Origin: Escherichia coli
Lineage (GTDB): Bacteria > Pseudomonadota > Gammaproteobacteria > Enterobacterales > Enterobacteriaceae
DNA: 64,000 bases
Assembly: GCF_003018255.1 (NCBI RefSeq)
Contig: NZ_CP027440.1
Direction: 5' to 3' (one strand)
The stretch's first letter is position 1; each line of letters begins with the position of its first letter. The translations under genes were made by a program, and so were the position numbers. Below the pieces are notes generated by a model. The model was not told where the DNA came from. It saw nothing but the letters and a program-made list of their open reading frames with translations, and did no database searches. This document shows, in pieces, positions 41,248 to 55,357 of this stretch.

Positions 41248-42870
<1,623 letters not shown>

Positions 42871-42879
42871 AAAGGCATT

Positions 42880-42900
42880 CCGGCCTGCAGTGCAGGCCGG
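42880..42900. terminator. Palindromic hairpin between convergent murJ and flgN
   Basis: CCGGCCTGCAGTGCAGGCCGG perfect inverted repeat in the 39-bp convergent gap. Confidence 0.4.
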
Positions 42901-42909
42901 AGATAATCT

Positions 42910-43326
42910 TCAGATCGAAATCTTTTTACTGCCGCGATGGGTTGTTGAGGTCTGACCGTTCGCTCCATATAGCGTCGGTTCCTGATGCGGTTTCAACATT
43001 TCCAGCGCCTGTTGATTGCGCTCAATCTGTCCTTCCAGTAACCAGCCGTTATGTTGATTCATTTGGCGTAGTTGCTGCGTTTTCACAGTAATTTCCTGCC
43101 AGCGTTGACTAATATCAACGCTATTTGCTGCATTGGGTTCTTTCCTGCGTAACTGTTCGAGGTAATCCAGCGTCGCCAGCAGAGAGCTTTTTTGTTCTGT
43201 AATCCATTGCAACTGGCTGCCGTTGATCTGCCCCATAGAGAGATGTTGCTGCTCTTGATCCATTACCGTTTTGAGATCGTTAAGCACAGCGGACATCTGG
43301 TCGAGGATCTCTGCAAGACGCGTCAT
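42910..43326 (-). CDS. flgN: Flagellar export chaperone FlgN
   Basis: 138-aa ORF downstream of flgM. Confidence 0.93.
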   Translation of the reverse strand: MTRLAEILDQMSAVLNDLKTVMDQEQQHLSMGQINGSQLQWITEQKSSLLATLDYLEQLRRKEPNAANSVDISQRWQEITVKTQQLRQMNQHNGWLLEGQIERNQQALEMLKPHQEPTLYGANGQTSTTHRGSKKISI

Positions 43327-43330
43327 ACGA

Positions 43331-43624
43331 TCAGTTACTCTGCAAGTCTTGCTGCGCTTCGTTGATCAGCGCATCGGCAATTTTGCCGGTGTCCATTTTT
43401 AGTTCACCGTTACGAATCGCTAGTTTTAACGCTTCGACACGTTCAAGATTGATATCACTGCTGCCGGGTTGCATCAGTTTTGCTTGCGCGTCGCTTAACG
43501 TCACACTGGTGCTGGTGGAGGCGGTTGTTTTTGCCGCCCGGGTGTTCGTTACCGGCGCGTCAGTGGTTTCGCGCGGTTGAACGGTGCTTACGGGCTTCAG
43601 AGGCGAAGTGCGATCAATACTCAT
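43331..43624 (-). CDS. flgM: Anti-sigma-28 factor FlgM
   Basis: 97-aa ORF ([22 protein letters not shown]...). Confidence 0.95.
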
Positions 43625-43667
43625 GGTTTATTCCTCATTGAGGGCGCTTTTATCATGTGTTGCTTAT

Positions 43668-43694
43668 TTATCGGCAAGGGACGGGTAATCTTTA
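43668..43694 (-). promoter_or_regulatory. Sigma28 (FliA) class 3 promoter for flgMN
   Basis: Minus strand reads TAAAGATT - 11 nt - GCCGATAA, matching the sigma28 consensus TAAAGTTT-N11-GCCGATAA, in the flgA-flgM gap. Confidence 0.65.
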
Positions 43695-43699
43695 ACAGC

Positions 43700-44359
43700 T
43701 TACAGGTTTATAAGAATATTCCCATCTGCATCAACAACGCCGCTGACCACTTGTCCCGATACCATGCGCACCCGCGCATTCTGTGCGACGGCAGCATTGT
43801 TCAGCGCCTGACCTTCTGCGTTGGCGCTAAACCCATCACCGCTGGCGATCACGTTGACGCGTTGTCCCGCTTTTACCCGCCATGCCTGGCGAAACTGGGT
43901 TAACTGGATAGGTTGATCGGGTGATAGATCGCGCAGGCTAACGGCATCAACAAGTTGATTGATATCCAGCACCGTACGCGGTGGCAAGGTGTCCAGCCGT
44001 CCGCGTTTCAGTTTGACATTGCCAGCTTCCAGCTTTCCTCCCCGCACAATGGGCATTGCGGCAACCACATAATTTCCTGTGGCCTGCACATTAACCTGTA
44101 AATATCGTTTGTCGTTACCGCAGCGTGCCAACACATTCACATTGCCCCACAGGCGGGAATTATTGCTCATCGAAAGCAATGGCTGCTCGCACGGCGGTAG
44201 TAGATTGGGCGCTGTACGAATAGAAACACGAACCTCATCACTTACCCCCGCGAGCTGGGCGCTAAAAAAGGTGTGCAATTGCGATGTGAGATTGCTCGCC
44301 GCACTTAACGGACTGAACAGTATCGCGATGATCGCCACGCTACGTTTTATTGCCAGCAT
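43700..44359 (-). CDS. flgA: Flagellar P-ring assembly chaperone FlgA
   Basis: 219-aa ORF with signal peptide, divergent from flgB. Confidence 0.93.
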   Translation of the reverse strand: MLAIKRSVAIIAILFSPLSAASNLTSQLHTFFSAQLAGVSDEVRVSIRTAPNLLPPCEQPLLSMSNNSRLWGNVNVLARCGNDKRYLQVNVQATGNYVVAAMPIVRGGKLEAGNVKLKRGRLDTLPPRTVLDINQLVDAVSLRDLSPDQPIQLTQFRQAWRVKAGQRVNVIASGDGFSANAEGQALNNAAVAQNARVRMVSGQVVSGVVDADGNILINL

Positions 44360-44513
44360 TTTCGCCCCCTGCCATTTCTACAACGTGAATTGTACCTGTC
44401 CGCAATGACCATCAACGGCATAAATAGCGACCCATTTTGCGTTTATTCCGCCGATAACGCGCGCGTAAAGGCATTTAAGCTGATGGCAGAATTTTGATAC
44501 CTGCGGAGGAGAT
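44360..44513. promoter_or_regulatory. flgA / flgB divergent class 2 flagellar promoter region (FlhDC-dependent)
   Basis: 154-bp divergent intergenic region between flgA and flgB; assignment from known flagellar regulon architecture. Confidence 0.5.
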
Positions 44514-44930
44514 ATGCTCGATAAGCTCGACGCCGCCTTACGTTTTCAACAAGAGGCGCTCAATCTGCGCGCCCAGCGTCAGGAAGTGCTGGCAGCAAAC
44601 ATCGCCAATGCCGATACCCCTGGTTATCAGGCGCGCGATATCGATTTTGCCAGTGAACTTAAAAAAGTCATGCAACGTGGACGGGATGCAACCAGTGTGG
44701 TTGCACTGACGATGACCTCAACGCAACACATTCCGGCGCAGGCGCTGACGCCTCCTACCGCAGAACTGCAATACCGTATTCCGGACCAGCCTTCGCTTGA
44801 CGGTAATACCGTCGATATGGATCGCGAACGCACCCAGTTTGCCGATAACAGCCTGCAATACCAGATGAGCCTTAGCGCGTTGAGCGGGCAAATCAAAGGC
44901 ATGATGAACGTTTTACAGAGCGGAAATTAA
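44514..44930 (+). CDS. flgB: Flagellar proximal rod protein FlgB
   Basis: 138-aa ORF; rod-protein N-terminal motif ([11 protein letters not shown]). Confidence 0.95.
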
Positions 44931-44933
44931 CGG

Positions 44934-45338
44934 ATGGCACTGCTGAATATTTTTGATATCGCCGGGTCGGCGTTAACTGCCCAGTCCCAGCGCCTGAACG
45001 TGGCGGCCAGTAATCTGGCGAATGCTGATAGCGTGACCGGTCCCGATGGACAGCCATATCGGGCAAAACAGGTGGTATTCCAGGTTAACGCTGCACCAGG
45101 TGCTGCGACAGGCGGCGTAAAGGTTGCCGATGTTATAGAAAGTCAGGCCCCGGACAAACTGGTTTATGAACCGGGTAATCCGCTGGCGGATGCAAAGGGC
45201 TACGTGAAAATGCCAAACGTTGATGTCGTCGGGGAGATGGTTAACACCATGTCGGCGTCACGCAGCTATCAGGCCAATGTTGAAGTGCTCAACACGGTGA
45301 AAAGCATGATGCTGAAAACCCTTACGCTCGGTCAATAA
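44934..45338 (+). CDS. flgC: Flagellar proximal rod protein FlgC
   Basis: 134-aa ORF; SNLANADS motif. Confidence 0.95.
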
Positions 45339-45349
45339 AGGAGAAAGCT

Positions 45350-46045
45350 ATGTCCATTGCGGTAACCACCACCGATCCGACAAATACCGGCGTTAGTACC
45401 ACCAGCAGTAGTTCGCTCACGGGCAGCAACGCCGCAGATTTACAAAGCAGTTTTCTGACTTTGTTGGTGGCGCAGCTGAAAAACCAGGACCCGACCAATC
45501 CAATGGAAAACAACGAGCTGACGTCGCAATTGGCTCAAATCAGCACGGTCAGCGGGATTGAAAAACTCAATACCACGCTCGGATCTATTTCCGGACAGAT
45601 TGATAACAGCCAGTCGTTACAGGCCAGTAACCTGATCGGTCACGGCGTGATGATCCCCGGCACCACTGTTCTTGCGGGAACCGGCAGTGAAGAAGGGGCT
45701 GTGACCACGACCACGCCGTTTGGTGTTGAGCTGCAACAGGCGGCAGACAAAGTTACGGCCACCATCACCGATAAAAATGGCGCGGTTGTGCGCACCATTG
45801 ATATTGGTGAACTGACCGCCGGAGTCCACAGTTTCACCTGGGACGGTACGTTGACTGACGGCACCACTGCGCCGAACGGTTCTTACAACGTAGCGATTAG
45901 CGCCAGTAACGGTGGTACACAACTGGTTGCCCAGCCGCTGCAGTTTGCTCTGGTGCAGGGTGTGATCCGCGGCAACAACGGTAATACGCTGGATCTCGGC
46001 ACTTACGGCACCACCACCCTCGACGAAGTACGGCAGATAATTTAA
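45350..46045 (+). CDS. flgD: Flagellar hook capping protein FlgD
   Basis: 231-aa ORF following flgC. Confidence 0.95.
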   Translation: MSIAVTTTDPTNTGVSTTSSSSLTGSNAADLQSSFLTLLVAQLKNQDPTNPMENNELTSQLAQISTVSGIEKLNTTLGSISGQIDNSQSLQASNLIGHGVMIPGTTVLAGTGSEEGAVTTTTPFGVELQQAADKVTATITDKNGAVVRTIDIGELTAGVHSFTWDGTLTDGTTAPNGSYNVAISASNGGTQLVAQPLQFALVQGVIRGNNGNTLDLGTYGTTTLDEVRQII

Positions 46046-46069
46046 GCCTTCACATTTCAGGAGTCAGTC

Positions 46070-47275
46070 ATGGCCTTTTCTCAAGCGGTTAGCGGATTAA
46101 ACGCTGCCGCCACCAACCTCGATGTTATTGGCAACAATATCGCCAACTCCGCCACCTACGGCTTTAAATCAGGCACGGCCTCTTTTGCCGATATGTTTGC
46201 CGGTTCGAAAGTGGGACTGGGGGTAAAAGTTGCTGGTATCACTCAGGACTTTACCGATGGCACGACCACCAACACCGGGCGAGGTCTGGACGTTGCTATC
46301 AGCCAGAACGGTTTTTTCCGTCTGGTAGACAGCAACGGTTCGGTGTTCTACAGCCGTAACGGACAATTTAAGCTGGATGAAAACCGTAACCTGGTGAATA
46401 TGCAAGGTTTACAGCTGACGGGTTACCCGGCAACCGGTACGCCGCCGACTATTCAGCAAGGGGCGAATCCGACCAATATTTCGATTCCGAATACCCTGAT
46501 GGCAGCGAAAACTACCACCACGGCGTCGATGCAGATCAACCTGAATTCCAGTGATCCGCTTCCCTCTGTTAACGCATTTGATGCTAGCAATGCGGATAGC
46601 TATAACAAAAAAGGTTCGGTGACTGTTTTCGATAGTCAGGGTAATGCTCATGACATGAGCGTCTACTTTGTGAAGACCGGGGATAATAACTGGCAGGTCT
46701 ACACCCAGGATAGCAGTGATCCAACAGGTACAGCTGAGCCTGCAATGACGCTGGTGTTTAATGCCAATGGCGTTCTGACCTCAGATCCAACAGCGAATAT
46801 TTCCACTGGCGCAATTAACGGTGCAGAACCCGCCACGTTTAGCCTGAGCTTCCTCAACTCCATGCAGCAAAATACCGGCGCTAACAACATAGTGGCAACC
46901 ACCCAGAACGGCTACAAACCGGGCGATCTGGTGAGTTATCAAATCAATGATGACGGTACGGTTGTCGGCAACTATTCCAACGAACAAACCCAACTGCTGG
47001 GGCAGATTGTACTGGCGAACTTTGCCAACAACGAAGGTCTGGCATCCGAAGGCGACAACGTCTGGTCTGCGACGCAATCTTCTGGCGTGGCGCTGTTGGG
47101 GACAGCCGGGACGGGCAACTTTGGCACCCTGACCAACGGTGCGCTGGAAGCGTCCAACGTCGATCTCAGTAAAGAACTGGTCAATATGATCGTTGCTCAG
47201 CGTAACTATCAGTCTAACGCCCAGACCATCAAAACCCAGGACCAGATCCTCAACACGCTGGTTAACTTACGCTAA
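46070..47275 (+). CDS. flgE: Flagellar hook protein FlgE
   Basis: 401-aa ORF (MAFSQAVSGLNAAATNLDVIGNNIANSAT...). Confidence 0.95.
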   Translation: MAFSQAVSGLNAAATNLDVIGNNIANSATYGFKSGTASFADMFAGSKVGLGVKVAGITQDFTDGTTTNTGRGLDVAISQNGFFRLVDSNGSVFYSRNGQFKLDENRNLVNMQGLQLTGYPATGTPPTIQQGANPTNISIPNTLMAAKTTTTASMQINLNSSDPLPSVNAFDASNADSYNKKGSVTVFDSQGNAHDMSVYFVKTGDNNWQVYTQDSSDPTGTAEPAMTLVFNANGVLTSDPTANISTGAINGAEPATFSLSFLNSMQQNTGANNIVATTQNGYKPGDLVSYQINDDGTVVGNYSNEQTQLLGQIVLANFANNEGLASEGDNVWSATQSSGVALLGTAGTGNFGTLTNGALEASNVDLSKELVNMIVAQRNYQSNAQTIKTQDQILNTLVNLR

Positions 47276-47294
47276 TCGCTGACGGGATAGCTCA

Positions 47295-48050
47295 ATGGAT
47301 CACGCAATTTATACCGCGATGGGAGCAGCCAGCCAGACGTTGAATCAACAGGCGGTAACCGCCAGTAATCTGGCCAATGCCTCAACGCCCGGTTTTCGCG
47401 CGCAGTTAAACGCCTTGCGCGCAGTGCCGGTGGAAGGGCTTTCACTGCCTACGCGCACGCTGGTAACGGCGTCAACGCCGGGTGCAGACATGACGCCCGG
47501 CAAGATGGATTACACCTCGCGCCCGCTGGACGTTGCGTTGCAGCAGGATGGCTGGCTGGCCGTGCAGACCGCTGACGGTAGCGAAGGGTATACGCGTAAT
47601 GGCAGCATTCAGGTTGATCCCACCGGGCAACTGACAATTCAGGGACATCCGGTGATAGGCGAGGCTGGGCCAATTGCTGTGCCGGAAGGGGCGGAAATCA
47701 CTATTGCTGCCGATGGCACAATCTCGGCGCTGAATCCGGGCGATCCGGCAAATACGGTTGCGCCAGTGGGGCGTCTGAAACTGGTGAAAGCCACGGGCAG
47801 CGAAGTCCAGCGCGGTGACGACGGCATTTTTCGTTTAAGCGCAGAAACCCAGACCACGCGTGGGCCGGTACTGCAGGCAGATCCAACCTTGCGTGTGATG
47901 TCGGGTGTTCTGGAAGGCAGTAACGTCAATGCCGTTGCGGCAATGAGCGACATGATTGCCAGCGCGCGGCGTTTTGAAATGCAGATGAAGGTGATCAGCA
48001 GCGTCGATGATAACGCAGGCCGAGCCAACCAACTGCTGTCGATGAGTTAA
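47295..48050 (+). CDS. flgF: Flagellar proximal rod protein FlgF
   Basis: 251-aa ORF. Confidence 0.95.
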   Translation: MDHAIYTAMGAASQTLNQQAVTASNLANASTPGFRAQLNALRAVPVEGLSLPTRTLVTASTPGADMTPGKMDYTSRPLDVALQQDGWLAVQTADGSEGYTRNGSIQVDPTGQLTIQGHPVIGEAGPIAVPEGAEITIAADGTISALNPGDPANTVAPVGRLKLVKATGSEVQRGDDGIFRLSAETQTTRGPVLQADPTLRVMSGVLEGSNVNAVAAMSDMIASARRFEMQMKVISSVDDNAGRANQLLSMS

Positions 48051-48076
48051 TTGAAAGGATACATGACAAGTATAAG

Positions 48077-48178
<102 letters not shown>

Positions 48179-48202
48179 AAGACAGATGCACTTTGTCACT
48201 AA

Positions 48203-49003
<801 letters not shown>

Positions 49004-49055
49004 GGCATAACCGGTGGCAGATTCACCGGTTTACTGATTTTTGAAGATGATAGCC

Positions 49056-49754
49056 ATGCAAAAAAACGCTGCGCATACTTATGCCATTTCCAGCTTGTTG
49101 GTGCTTTCACTAACCGGCTGCGCCTGGATACCCTCCACGCCGCTGGTACAGGGGGCGACCAGTGCACAACCGGTTCCCGGTCCGACGCCCGTCGCCAACG
49201 GTTCTATTTTCCAGTCTGCTCAGCCGATTAACTATGGCTATCAACCGCTGTTTGAAGATCGTCGACCACGCAATATTGGCGATACGCTGACCATCGTGTT
49301 GCAGGAGAACGTCAGCGCCAGCAAAAGCTCCTCTGCGAATGCCAGCCGTGACGGTAAAACTAATTTTGGCTTTGATACTGTGCCGCGCTATTTGCAGGGG
49401 CTGTTTGGTAACGCTCGTGCCGATGTCGAAGCCTCCGGTGGTAACACGTTCAACGGAAAAGGCGGGGCCAATGCCAGTAATACCTTTAGCGGCACGTTGA
49501 CGGTGACGGTTGACCAGGTACTGGTTAACGGCAACCTGCATGTGGTGGGTGAAAAACAGATCGCCATTAATCAGGGTACCGAATTTATTCGCTTCTCTGG
49601 CGTGGTTAATCCACGCACTATCAGCGGCAGCAATACCGTACCGTCTACTCAGGTGGCGGATGCGCGCATTGAATACGTAGGCAATGGCTACATTAACGAA
49701 GCGCAAAATATGGGCTGGTTGCAGCGTTTCTTTCTTAACCTGTCTCCAATGTAA
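49056..49754 (+). CDS. flgH: Flagellar L-ring lipoprotein FlgH
   Basis: 232-aa product from ATG 49056 ([22 protein letters not shown]...) with lipobox. Confidence 0.93.
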
Positions 49755-49765
49755 GTGAGGCTGTG

Positions 49766-50863
49766 GTGATTAAATTTCTCTCTGCATTAATTCTTCTACT
49801 GGTTACGACGGCGGCTCAGGCTGAGCGTATTCGCGATCTCACCAGTGTTCAGGGGGTAAGGCAAAACTCACTGATTGGCTATGGCCTGGTGGTGGGGCTG
49901 GATGGAACTGGTGACCAGACAACTCAGACGCCGTTTACCACACAAACGCTTAATAACATGCTCTCACAGCTGGGAATTACCGTTCCGACGGGCACTAATA
50001 TGCAGCTAAAAAACGTCGCTGCGGTTATGGTGACAGCGTCACTTCCACCGTTTGGACGTCAGGGGCAAACCATTGACGTGGTGGTTTCTTCCATGGGAAA
50101 TGCCAAAAGTCTGCGTGGCGGTACGTTATTGATGACACCGCTTAAGGGCGTTGACAGTCAGGTGTATGCGCTGGCGCAGGGCAATATTCTGGTTGGCGGC
50201 GCAGGGGCCTCCGCTGGCGGTAGCAGTGTTCAGGTGAACCAACTGAACGGTGGACGGATCACCAATGGTGCGGTTATTGAACGTGAATTGCCCAGCCAGT
50301 TTGGCGTCGGGAATACCCTTAATTTGCAACTTAACGACGAAGATTTCAGCATGGCACAGCAAATCGCTGACACCATCAACCGAGTGCGTGGATATGGCAG
50401 CGCCACCGCGTTGGATGCGCGGACTATTCAGGTGCGCGTACCGAGTGGCAACAGTTCCCAGGTCCGTTTCCTTGCCGATATCCAGAATATGCAGGTTAAT
50501 GTTACCCCGCAGGACGCTAAAGTAGTGATTAACTCGCGCACCGGTTCGGTGGTGATGAATCGCGAAGTGACCCTCGACAGCTGCGCGGTAGCGCAGGGAA
50601 ATCTCTCAGTAACAGTTAATCGCCAGGCCAATGTCAGCCAGCCAGATACACCGTTTGGTGGTGGACAGACTGTGGTTACTCCACAAACGCAGATCGATTT
50701 ACGCCAGAGCGGCGGTTCGCTGCAAAGCGTACGTTCCAGCGCCAGCCTCAATAACGTGGTGCGTGCGCTCAATGCGCTGGGCGCTACGCCGATGGATCTG
50801 ATGTCTATTTTGCAATCAATGCAAAGTGCGGGATGTCTGCGGGCAAAACTGGAAATCATCTGA
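49766..50863 (+). CDS. flgI: Flagellar P-ring protein FlgI
   Basis: 365-aa product from GTG 49766 ([19 protein letters not shown]...) with signal peptide. Confidence 0.93.
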
Positions 50864-51804
50864 TGATCAGCGACAGCAAACTACTGGCAAGTGCGGCCTG
50901 GGATGCACAATCGCTCAACGAACTTAAGGCGAAAGCGGGCGAAGATCCGGCGGCAAATATCCGTCCGGTGGCCCGCCAGGTGGAAGGGATGTTCGTGCAG
51001 ATGATGTTGAAAAGCATGCGCGACGCTTTACCAAAAGATGGCCTGTTCAGCAGCGAGCACACTCGCCTGTATACCAGTATGTATGACCAGCAGATTGCCC
51101 AACAGATGACGGCGGGCAAAGGTCTGGGGCTGGCAGAGATGATGGTTAAACAGATGACGCCAGAACAACCATTGCCAGAGGAGTCCACGCCAGCAGCACC
51201 GATGAAATTCCCGCTCGAAACCGTGGTGCGTTATCAAAATCAGACGCTTTCGCAGCTGGTGCAAAAGGCCGTACCACGTAACTACGATGATTCGCTGCCG
51301 GGTGACAGTAAAGCATTCCTCGCGCAACTCTCGTTGCCCGCCCAACTGGCAAGCCAGCAAAGCGGTGTGCCACATCATTTGATCCTCGCTCAGGCGGCGC
51401 TGGAATCTGGCTGGGGACAACGGCAAATCCGCCGTGAAAACGGCGAGCCGAGCTATAACCTGTTTGGCGTCAAAGCCTCTGGCAACTGGAAAGGGCCAGT
51501 CACTGAAATCACCACGACTGAATATGAAAATGGCGAAGCGAAGAAAGTAAAAGCGAAGTTTCGGGTCTACAGCTCGTATCTGGAAGCATTGTCGGATTAC
51601 GTTGGGCTGTTAACGCGTAACCCGCGCTACGCCGCCGTGACGACCGCCGCGAGTGCGGAGCAGGGGGCGCAGGCCCTACAGGACGCGGGCTATGCCACCG
51701 ATCCTCACTATGCCCGCAAACTCACCAGCATGATTCAGCAGATGAAATCGATAAGCGACAAGGTGAGCAAAACCTACAGCATGAACATTGATAATCTGTT
51801 CTGA
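50863..51804 (+). CDS. flgJ: Flagellar rod assembly protein / peptidoglycan hydrolase FlgJ
   Basis: 313-aa product; start ATG overlaps the flgI stop (TGATG); C-terminal glucosaminidase domain. Confidence 0.93.
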   Translation: MISDSKLLASAAWDAQSLNELKAKAGEDPAANIRPVARQVEGMFVQMMLKSMRDALPKDGLFSSEHTRLYTSMYDQQIAQQMTAGKGLGLAEMMVKQMTPEQPLPEESTPAAPMKFPLETVVRYQNQTLSQLVQKAVPRNYDDSLPGDSKAFLAQLSLPAQLASQQSGVPHHLILAQAALESGWGQRQIRRENGEPSYNLFGVKASGNWKGPVTEITTTEYENGEAKKVKAKFRVYSSYLEALSDYVGLLTRNPRYAAVTTAASAEQGAQALQDAGYATDPHYARKLTSMIQQMKSISDKVSKTYSMNIDNLF

Positions 51805-51809
51805 ATAAC

Positions 51810-51836
51810 TCAAGTCCGGCGGGGCGCTGCCGATAA
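51810..51836 (+). promoter_or_regulatory. Possible sigma28 promoter for flgKL
   Basis: TCAAGTCC - 11 nt - GCCGATAA; the -10 element matches sigma28 consensus exactly, the -35 only partly. Confidence 0.35.
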
Positions 51837-51869
51837 TACTCTGTAATTGAAGGCTTATAAGGAACCTCC

Positions 51870-53513
51870 ATGTCCAGCTTGATCAATAACGCCATGAGCG
51901 GACTGAACGCGGCCCAGGCGGCGTTAAATACGGCAAGTAATAATATCTCCAGCTATAACGTTGCCGGATATACCCGCCAAACCACTATTATGGCGCAGGC
52001 CAATAGCACGTTGGGCGCTGGCGGCTGGGTTGGCAATGGCGTCTACGTTTCTGGTGTGCAGCGTGAGTATGATGCGTTTATTACCAACCAGTTACGTGCT
52101 GCGCAGACGCAAAGTAGCGGCCTGACCGCCCGCTATGAGCAGATGTCGAAAATCGACAATATGCTCTCCACCAGTACCTCTTCGCTGGCAACACAGATGC
52201 AGGATTTCTTCACCAGCCTGCAAACGCTGGTGAGTAACGCGGAAGATCCGGCAGCGCGCCAGGCGCTGATTGGGAAATCAGAAGGGTTGGTGAATCAGTT
52301 TAAAACCACCGATCAATATCTGCGCGACCAGGACAAACAGGTCAATATCGCGATAGGTGCCAGCGTTGATCAGATCAACAATTACGCTAAACAAATCGCC
52401 AGCCTGAACGATCAAATCTCCCGCCTGACAGGCGTGGGGGCAGGGGCGTCACCTAACAATCTGCTGGATCAACGCGATCAACTGGTGAGCGAATTAAACC
52501 AGATTGTTGGTGTAGAAGTCAGCGTTCAGGATGGTGGCACTTATAACATCACGATGGCCAATGGTTACTCACTGGTTCAGGGAAGTACGGCTCGGCAACT
52601 GGCGGCAGTTCCTTCCAGCGCTGACCCTTCTCGTACGACTGTCGCTTATGTTGATGGGACGGCAGGCAATATTGAGATCCCGGAGAAATTACTGAATACC
52701 GGGTCGCTGGGCGGCATTCTGACATTCCGTTCTCAGGATCTGGACCAGACGCGTAATACGCTTGGACAACTGGCGCTGGCATTTGCCGAGGCTTTCAACA
52801 CCCAACACAAAGCCGGATTTGATGCTAACGGCGATGCCGGTGAAGATTTCTTTGCTATCGGTAAGCCCGCGGTTCTGCAAAACACGAAAAACAAAGGTGA
52901 CGTTGCGATCGGTGCAACGGTAACTGATGCCTCCGCGGTACTGGCGACAGATTACAAAATCTCGTTCGATAATAATCAGTGGCAGGTCACCCGCCTTGCC
53001 AGTAATACCACTTTTACGGTGACGCCGGATGCCAGCGGTAAAGTGGCATTTGATGGTCTGGAGTTGACGTTTACAGGAACGCCTGCCGTTAACGACAGCT
53101 TCACGCTGAAACCGGTAAGTGACGCCATCGTCAACATGGATGTATTAATCACCGACGAAGCGAAAATCGCCATGGCGAGCGCAGAAGATACAGGTGATAG
53201 CGACAACCGCAACGGTCAGGCCCTGCTCGATCTGCAAAGCAACAGTAAAACGGTGGGCGGTGCGAAATCCTTTAACGACGCTTATGCCTCGTTAGTGAGT
53301 GATATCGGTAATAAAACCGCGACGTTGAAAACCAGTAGCACCACGCAAGGTAATGTGGTGACGCAGCTTTCCAATCAGCAGCAGTCGATTTCCGGTGTCA
53401 ATCTCGATGAGGAGTACGGAAATCTGCAACGTTTTCAGCAGTATTACCTGGCGAATGCGCAGGTTCTGCAGACGGCAAACGCGATTTTTGATGCGCTGAT
53501 TAACATTCGCTAA
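51870..53513 (+). CDS. flgK: Flagellar hook-associated protein 1 FlgK
   Basis: 547-aa ORF. Confidence 0.95.
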   Translation: MSSLINNAMSGLNAAQAALNTASNNISSYNVAGYTRQTTIMAQANSTLGAGGWVGNGVYVSGVQREYDAFITNQLRAAQTQSSGLTARYEQMSKIDNMLSTSTSSLATQMQDFFTSLQTLVSNAEDPAARQALIGKSEGLVNQFKTTDQYLRDQDKQVNIAIGASVDQINNYAKQIASLNDQISRLTGVGAGASPNNLLDQRDQLVSELNQIVGVEVSVQDGGTYNITMANGYSLVQGSTARQLAAVPSSADPSRTTVAYVDGTAGNIEIPEKLLNTGSLGGILTFRSQDLDQTRNTLGQLALAFAEAFNTQHKAGFDANGDAGEDFFAIGKPAVLQNTKNKGDVAIGATVTDASAVLATDYKISFDNNQWQVTRLASNTTFTVTPDASGKVAFDGLELTFTGTPAVNDSFTLKPVSDAIVNMDVLITDEAKIAMASAEDTGDSDNRNGQALLDLQSNSKTVGGAKSFNDAYASLVSDIGNKTATLKTSSTTQGNVVTQLSNQQQSISGVNLDEEYGNLQRFQQYYLANAQVLQTANAIFDALINIR

Positions 53514-53524
53514 GGGGAGATAAG

Positions 53525-54478
53525 ATGCGTTTCAGTACCCAGATGATGTACCAGCAAAACATGCGTGGTATCACCAATTCTCAGGCAGAATGGATGAAGT
53601 ACGGCGAACAGATGTCGACGGGTAAGCGAGTCGTTAACCCTTCAGATGATCCCATTGCTGCATCACAAGCTGTTGTTCTCTCCCAGGCACAGGCGCAAAA
53701 CAGCCAGTACACGCTGGCGCGTACTTTCGCCACTCAAAAAGTGTCACTGGAAGAGAGTGTACTTAGCCAGGTCACCACCGCTATCCAGAATGCTCAGGAA
53801 AAAATTGTCTACGCCAGCAATGGCACCTTGAGTGACGATGACCGGGCCTCGCTGGCTACGGATATTCAGGGGCTTCGTGACCAGTTGCTGAATCTGGCGA
53901 ACACCACTGACGGTAACGGGCGCTACATTTTTGCCGGTTATAAAACAGAATCCGCACCGTTTAGCGAGGCGGATGGAAAATACGAAGGCGGAGCAGAAAG
54001 TATTAAACAACAGGTCGATGCTTCGCGTTCGATGGTGATAGGGCACACGGGTGACAAAATTTTCGACAGTATTACCAGCAACGCGGTAGCGGAACCAGAC
54101 GGTAGCGCTTCTGAAACCAATCTTTTTGCCATGCTGGATAGCGCCATCGCAGCCCTGAAAACGCCGGTCGCGGATAGCGAAGCGGATAAAGAAACCGCCG
54201 CTGCGGCACTGGATAAAACCAACCGCGGACTGAAAAACTCGCTGAACAATGTGCTGACTGTTCGCGCGGAATTAGGCACGCAGCTGAACGAACTGGAGTC
54301 GCTGGATTCATTAGGTAGCGATCGCGCTTTAGGGCAAACGCAGCAGATGAGCGATCTGGTTGATGTGGACTGGAATGCAACTATTTCATCTTACATCATG
54401 CAGCAAACGGCATTGCAGGCGTCGTATAAAGCATTTACCGATATGCAGGGATTGTCGCTCTTCCAGCTCAACAAATAA
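53525..54478 (+). CDS. flgL: Flagellar hook-associated protein 3 FlgL
   Basis: 317-aa ORF; a GC hairpin plus T-run downstream (about 54520-54556) looks like its terminator. Confidence 0.95.
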   Translation: MRFSTQMMYQQNMRGITNSQAEWMKYGEQMSTGKRVVNPSDDPIAASQAVVLSQAQAQNSQYTLARTFATQKVSLEESVLSQVTTAIQNAQEKIVYASNGTLSDDDRASLATDIQGLRDQLLNLANTTDGNGRYIFAGYKTESAPFSEADGKYEGGAESIKQQVDASRSMVIGHTGDKIFDSITSNAVAEPDGSASETNLFAMLDSAIAALKTPVADSEADKETAAAALDKTNRGLKNSLNNVLTVRAELGTQLNELESLDSLGSDRALGQTQQMSDLVDVDWNATISSYIMQQTALQASYKAFTDMQGLSLFQLNK

Positions 54479-54572
54479 TTTCGCTTTAAAACATATCATG
54501 AAACTGGGTATGTTTTGTCTGCCTGCTCTGGGATCGCCGGGGCGGGCATTTTTTTGCATGAGACATAACGAA

Positions 54573-55357
<785 letters not shown>

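Follow-up and report, generated by a model that had tools for sequence, protein, structure and literature searches.

The flgA-flgM gap and its gene context

The window analyzed here, by which we mean the whole 64,000-nt stretch of Escherichia coli DNA under study, contains the flg flagellar gene cluster, in which flgN, flgM, and flgA lie on one strand, divergent from flgB to flgL (Table 1). The gene identities assigned in a first-pass annotation of this stretch were correct. In a search of 5426 complete E. coli genomes, a 1.3-kb query around the flgM promoter region (here flgMp) matched 5425 and was 100% identical to strain DETEC-S792, whose annotation likewise has murJ, flgN, flgM, and flgA running one way and flgBCDEFGHIJKL the opposite way.

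Table 1. Features of the flg cluster discussed in the text, in window coordinates
Feature	Position	Strand	Remarks
flgA, upstream class 2 gene	43700..44359	-	Read-through flgAMN transcript also spans flgM
flgM, anti-sigma28 factor	43331..43624	-	
flgN, FlgK/FlgL export chaperone	42910..43326	-	Second gene of the flgMN unit
Terminator-like hairpin plus T-run after flgN	42901-42879	-	Likely end of the flgMN and flgAMN transcripts
flgMp -35 octamer TAAAGATT	43694-43687	-	7/8 to consensus TAAAGTTT
flgMp spacer ACCCGTCCCTT	43686-43676	-	Exactly 11 nt
flgMp -10 octamer GCCGATAA	43675-43668	-	8/8 to consensus (extended -10 GC plus core CGATAA)
Class 3 flgM mRNA 5′ UTR	43625..43659	-	Short; Shine-Dalgarno GAGGA at 43636-43632
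flgKp TCAAGTCC-N11-GCCGATAA	51810-51836	+	-35, 5/8; -10, 8/8; spacer, 11 nt
flgK and flgL, hook-filament junction proteins	51870..54478	+	Transcribed from flgKp plus read-through from flgB
FlgO sRNA from the flgL 3′ UTR	54478..54555	+	K-12 annotation b4826

Between the flgA stop codon (TAA, 43702-43700) and the flgM start codon (ATG, 43624-43622), the minus strand has a gap of exactly 75 nt (43625-43699), the same interval in which the first-pass annotation had placed a near-perfect FliA (sigma28) promoter. Read along the minus strand, ...CTG TAA GCTGT is followed by TAAAGATT, ACCCGTCCCTT, GCCGATAA, and ATAAGCAACAC..., and the sequence from the -10 octamer to the flgM ATG is ATAAGCAACACATGATAAAAGCGCCCTCAATGAGGAATAAACC. 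The octamers, the 11-nt spacing, and the coordinates were all confirmed. The motif begins 5 nt past the flgA stop codon, and 43 nt separate its -10 octamer from the flgM ATG on the same strand. Compared with the sigma28 consensus given by Hollands et al. (TAAAGTTT-n11-GCCGATAA; PMC2859248), 15 of 16 positions agree; the only departure is at -35 position 6 (43689), where the consensus has T and flgMp has A.

The window comes from an E. coli strain other than K-12, and all 75 positions of the gap, which in K-12 MG1655 holds the annotated flgMp (RegulonDB ECK120009891), are identical in the two, with no difference anywhere within it. With consensus sigma28 promoters, such as that of tar, flgMp shares the octamers, their spacing, and, as predicted, a start about 7 to 8 nt downstream. 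Salmonella flgM has a class 3 promoter (Gillen and Hughes 1993 and Wozniak and Hughes 2008, both as cited by later authors) with the same architecture, which also lies just past the flgA stop codon; in S. enterica subspecies, the sequence upstream of flgM is TAAAGATT-N11-GCCGAT(G/A)A. flgMN and flgKL are among the eight sigma28 promoters that Hollands et al. list as “well characterized,” and the same authors cite mutagenesis of the Salmonella flgM promoter (PMC2859248).

A terminator scan of 42800-44600 revealed no terminator-like site between flgA and flgM on the minus strand, as would be expected if flgAMN and flgMN overlap. In a sigma70 scan of the same interval, promoter-like matches occurred at chance level, and the sole relevant feature was the hairpin and T-run past flgN, at which the flgMN transcript probably stops. 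An Rfam scan of 42700-55200, a range that covers both the flgM leader and FlgO, returned no family at gathering thresholds.

Within E. coli, a 51-nt core of flgMp is identical in 5193 of 5426 complete genomes. For a wider footprint, we took one genome per species and located the regions with a degenerate pattern anchored within the flgM coding sequence, so that the promoter had no role in choosing them. The 106 distinct regions obtained upstream of flgM span about 22 genera of the Enterobacteriaceae and Erwiniaceae, including Salmonella, Citrobacter, Enterobacter, Kosakonia, Buttiauxella, Pantoea, Erwinia, Mixta, Serratia, and Chimaeribacter, and every one of them (106/106) carries the motif with an 11-nt spacer. 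TAAAG of the -35 element is present in 106/106 and GCCGAT of the -10 element in 105 to 106 of 106, while spacer positions 1 to 9 are near random. Among random 140-nt windows drawn from the same loci, only 2.3% come within four mismatches of the motif, a figure that itself includes genuine promoters.

Two further positions stand out in this set. The last spacer base (43676, minus strand) is T in 103 of the 106 flgM promoters, and -35 position 6 (43689, minus strand) is A, rather than the consensus T, in 95 of them, meaning that the apparent mismatch in flgMp is itself the conserved state. Judged by sequence comparison, the last-spacer T and the A at -35 position 6 are promoter-specific conserved features that go beyond the textbook consensus.

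FliA occupancy and the transcripts reaching flgM

The presence, position, and conservation of the motif are observations of the present analysis; FliA occupancy and FliA-sufficient transcription have been published for K-12, whose sequence here is identical. Fitzgerald, Bonocora and Wade (2014) reported 52 FliA ChIP-seq sites in E. coli (PMC4183435, Table 2 and Table S3), and those of flgMN and flgKL are the only two within the flg cluster. The motif reported for flgMN is TAAAGATTACCCGTCCCTTGCCGATAAA (FAT 48) and that for flgKL is TCAAGTCCGGCGGGTCGCTGCCGATAAT (FAT 47); the 28-mer at the flgM motif in our window is exactly the former. ChIP-qPCR at flgMp gave a value of 22.0, versus 0.0 in the untagged control, and we mapped the amplicon used to window positions 43636-43739.

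In the same study (PMC4183435), transcripts were quantified by qRT-PCR relative to the wild type (set to 1). flgM mRNA stood at 0.016 in the absence of flhD, at 3.37 when that strain carried fliA on a plasmid, and at 0.23 in the absence of fliA (P = 0.001); the corresponding values for flgK were 0.003, 1.44, and 0.21. For flgA, the level was 0.009 without flhD and 0.012 after the addition of plasmid-borne fliA. flgB behaved similarly to flgA in these two backgrounds (0.0012 and 0.0018) and stood at 0.65 without fliA. In other words, FliA supplied without flhD restores flgM and flgK but not flgA or flgB, and the FliA dependence anticipated in the first-pass annotation is thereby borne out at the transcript level. 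The flgA and flgM amplicons map to 43722-43844 and 43418-43514 of the window, respectively. Given that flgM, but not flgA, is restored by FliA in the absence of flhD, a FliA-sufficient promoter lies between 43722 and 43514, and the flgMp motif is the sole candidate promoter in that interval. Its orientation and its distance to flgM are right for driving flgMN, as had been proposed, and the published FliA-sufficient flgM mRNA agrees with this placement. We consider it very nearly certain that the motif in the flgA-flgM gap represents flgMp, the class 3 promoter already described for flgMN in E. coli.

The same work places flgMp within a larger regulatory layout. The flgA/flgB intergenic region is occupied by FlhD and FlhC, and FlhDC controls the class 2 operons flgAMN and flgBCDEFGHIJ, with which flgMN and flgKL overlap; the overlapping pairs flgAMN/flgMN and flgB-J(KL)/flgKL are both supported (PMC4183435). 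With only two FliA sites in the cluster, each overlapped by a class 2 operon, the suggestion that these sites mark class 3 entry points into an otherwise class 2 cluster holds. Besides being transcribed from flgMp, flgMN receives read-through that originates at the FlhDC-dependent class 2 promoter before flgA, which puts flgM under dual class 2/class 3 control. Such dual control of flgM was described by Gillen and Hughes (1993), as relayed by a review.

How much flgMp contributes is a separate matter. One possibility, which we regard as real though doubtful, is that flgMp is a genuine, FliA-bound promoter of minor importance, with most flgM mRNA supplied by class 2 read-through during ordinary growth and flgMp mattering only when FliA activity is high, as in filament repair or swarming. 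RNA-seq in the study of Fitzgerald et al. can be read in this way, since flgM gave 451 in the wild type and 318 without fliA, a difference that was not significant and that suggests that the contribution of flgMp in those conditions may be small; the authors themselves concluded that FliA adds little to dual-regulated transcripts under their conditions (PMC4183435). Their qRT-PCR data, however, point the other way: loss of fliA produced a 4.4-fold drop in flgM, whereas flgB was only modestly reduced in the same comparison, and FliA in the absence of FlhDC brought flgM to 3.4 times the wild-type level. The share of flgM mRNA that originates at flgMp is something that we infer, in distinction to the existence of the promoter.

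Start site, leader, and the 5′ end at 43690

Two sources bear on where transcription from flgMp begins. The RegulonDB +1 for flgMp maps to 43661 in the window, with the evidence code HIPP, that is, human inference of promoter position (Table S3 of PMC4183435). Romilly et al. described a construct running from “+1 to 105” that comprises 23 codons (PMC7549644), which implies a 36-nt leader and hence a +1 at 43660. The A at 43660, 8 nt past the -10 octamer, is conserved in 102 of the 106 sequences. Taken together, these data suggest that the flgMp start lies at 43660/43661, 7 to 8 nt after the -10 octamer. A FliA-dependent 5′ end mapped to the nucleotide was not found for E. coli flgM in the accessible literature.

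The genome-wide 5′-end map of Kim et al. (2012) contains a single flgM end, at window position 43690 on the minus strand (14 reads), which would correspond to a 66-nt leader (PMC3415461). This position falls inside the -35 octamer of flgMp, and the data set has no end at 43660/43661. In those data, however, the canonical fliC start is missing, the read counts for fliA are 6 and 3, and flgB and motA have no entry (PMC3415461). The flagellar regulon was thus practically silent, and the absence of a sigma28-type start is uninformative.

The 43690 end nevertheless raises the question of whether the conserved block mainly serves some role other than that of a sigma28 promoter, for example, as a processing site or as a sigma70-type start for basal flgM expression. 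We think this very unlikely. That a 5′ end was recorded there while the flagellar regulon was off does speak for such a role, but upstream of 43690 each of the sigma70 hexamers is matched at only 3 of 6 positions, and a block consisting of TAAAG, 14 variable positions, and GCCGAT is the signature of sigma28 and of nothing else. Furthermore, another role would be compatible with sigma28 function, which has direct published support. One may speculate that the 43690 end represents a third start, independent of both FlhDC and FliA, or a processing site, either of which might supply basal FlgM and FlgN, and further that the leader of E. coli and E. albertii, shorter by ca. 17 nt, alters posttranscriptional control relative to Salmonella; we hold these proposals to be improbable.

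The leader itself varies in length among the genomes compared. Between the -10 octamer and the flgM ATG lie 43 nt in both E. coli and E. albertii, compared with 59 nt in Salmonella; the figure is 58 to 66 nt in most other Enterobacteriaceae and 67 to 74 nt in Pantoea and Erwinia. The E. coli/E. albertii leader lacks an internal segment of ca. 17 nt, and the Enterobacteriaceae retain the element CCCTC(G/A)ATGAGGA surrounding the Shine-Dalgarno sequence. Folding of the flgM 5′ UTR together with the early coding sequence gave nothing beyond what shuffled sequences give (z = -0.02), and we therefore do not propose that the Shine-Dalgarno sequence is sequestered by the CCCTCAATGAGG element. Romilly et al. 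report that two small RNAs, OmrA and OmrB, pair with the early flgM coding region (PMC7549644).

Match strength, the flgK promoter, and the FliA-FlgM loop

A consensus search of the window that allowed up to three mismatches returned 3 matches, where 0.72 would be expected. For a quantitative comparison, a log-odds weight matrix was trained on 23 other FliA ChIP-seq sites (FAT above 4, with flgM and flgK excluded), and the null was taken from the best match in each of 40 simulated first-order Markov sequences of 64 kb; the resulting maxima ranged from 10.9 to 18.5 bits, with a median of 14.5. The flgM site scored 27.4 bits, more than any other site in the window; placed among the training sites, it would come second. 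The flgK site scored 16.0 bits, which lies within the null range and below an intragenic match in flgD (17.8 bits); several other matches in the window reach 12 to 14 bits. On these scores flgMp is callable from sequence alone, whereas flgKp is not distinguishable from chance in this way.

Short composite motifs do arise by chance, as the flgD match and those at 12 to 14 bits illustrate, but the idea that the flgM motif is such a match, devoid of promoter function, is refuted by the margin of its score over the null maximum, by its retention in all 106 orthologous regions despite turnover of the spacer, and by the published FliA occupancy and FliA-sufficient transcription (PMC4183435), and we give it practically no credence.

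flgKp sits within the 65 nt that separate flgJ from flgK, and 33 nt lie between it and the flgK ATG at 51870. The K-12 promoter (RegulonDB ECK120009892) has the same octamers at the same position, and its RegulonDB +1 maps to 51843 in the window, the evidence again being human inference of promoter position only (Table S3 of PMC4183435). Upstream of flgK, TCAAGT-N13-G(C/T)CGATAA is kept in 8/8 distinct regions. The first-pass annotation had called this site the weaker candidate, a description that is accurate for its match to the consensus but that does not carry over to ChIP occupancy, which is equal at the two promoters (FAT 47 versus 48; PMC4183435). Its position, its conservation (8/8), and the published data support flgKp as a genuine published FliA site.

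The flgJ-flgK gap is identical to that of K-12 at 64 of 65 nt, the one difference being a spacer base at 51824 (plus strand), where the window has G and K-12 has T. An exact match to the 51-mer of the window, with G at 51824, was obtained in 434 of the 5426 complete E. coli genomes; the search required a 28-nt word and so missed genomes with the K-12 allele, which makes this a lower-bound view of a minority allele.

The intragenic match in flgD, CAAAGTTA-N11-ACCGATAA (45748-45775, plus strand), outscores the genuine flgK promoter. We asked whether it might be a third class 3 entry point and decided against this. The motif is identical in K-12 but is not among the 52 FliA ChIP-seq sites (PMC4183435), and it begins with C at -35 position 1, where a T-to-C change lowered the activity of the aer promoter about 10-fold (PMC2859248). 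(The -10 octamer of aer had been mutated earlier, from GCCGATAA to GCGCTCAA.) Across genera, moreover, the flgD motif decays, with 3 to 14 mismatches that include both synonymous and amino acid changes. The stretch encodes DKVTATITDK, and the motif is probably a by-product of this coding function.

The mechanism that flgMp serves can be outlined as follows. RNA polymerase carrying FliA recognizes TAAAGATT at -35 and GCCGATAA at -10, 11 nt apart, and would begin transcription ca. 7 to 8 nt downstream, at 43660/43661, yielding a short-leader mRNA (36 to 37 nt) for FlgM and FlgN. FlgM keeps FliA inactive until it is exported by the hook-basal body (PMC4183435 and a review). On completion of the hook-basal body, FlgM is exported and FliA freed, and the free FliA drives flgMp, a negative feedback on its own activity. 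Free FliA also drives flgKp and with it the production of FlgK and FlgL, the clients of FlgN, and of the sRNA FlgO. flgMp closes the negative-feedback loop that links FliA, the sigma factor, with its anti-sigma factor FlgM and that makes late flagellar gene expression depend on a finished hook-basal body. This loop is established for Salmonella and E. coli, so our finding confirms an annotation and adds no new biology. Its by-products are small: the 106/106 footprint, the recognition of A at -35 position 6 as a conserved state, and the observation that flgKp would escape a call made on its motif score.

FlgO is sigma28 dependent and is processed from the flgL 3′ UTR (bioRxiv 10.1101/2021.08.05.455139), which makes it a downstream product of flgKp. 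In the window it differs from the K-12 sequence by one substitution (CGCTGGGG to CGCCGGGG), located in the terminal hairpin region. The flgL-rne interval beyond it, from about 54570 onward, also differs: strain DETEC-S792, identical to the window, has a gene for a GNAT-family N-acetyltransferase there, whereas K-12 goes straight to rne, and this difference is strain specific.
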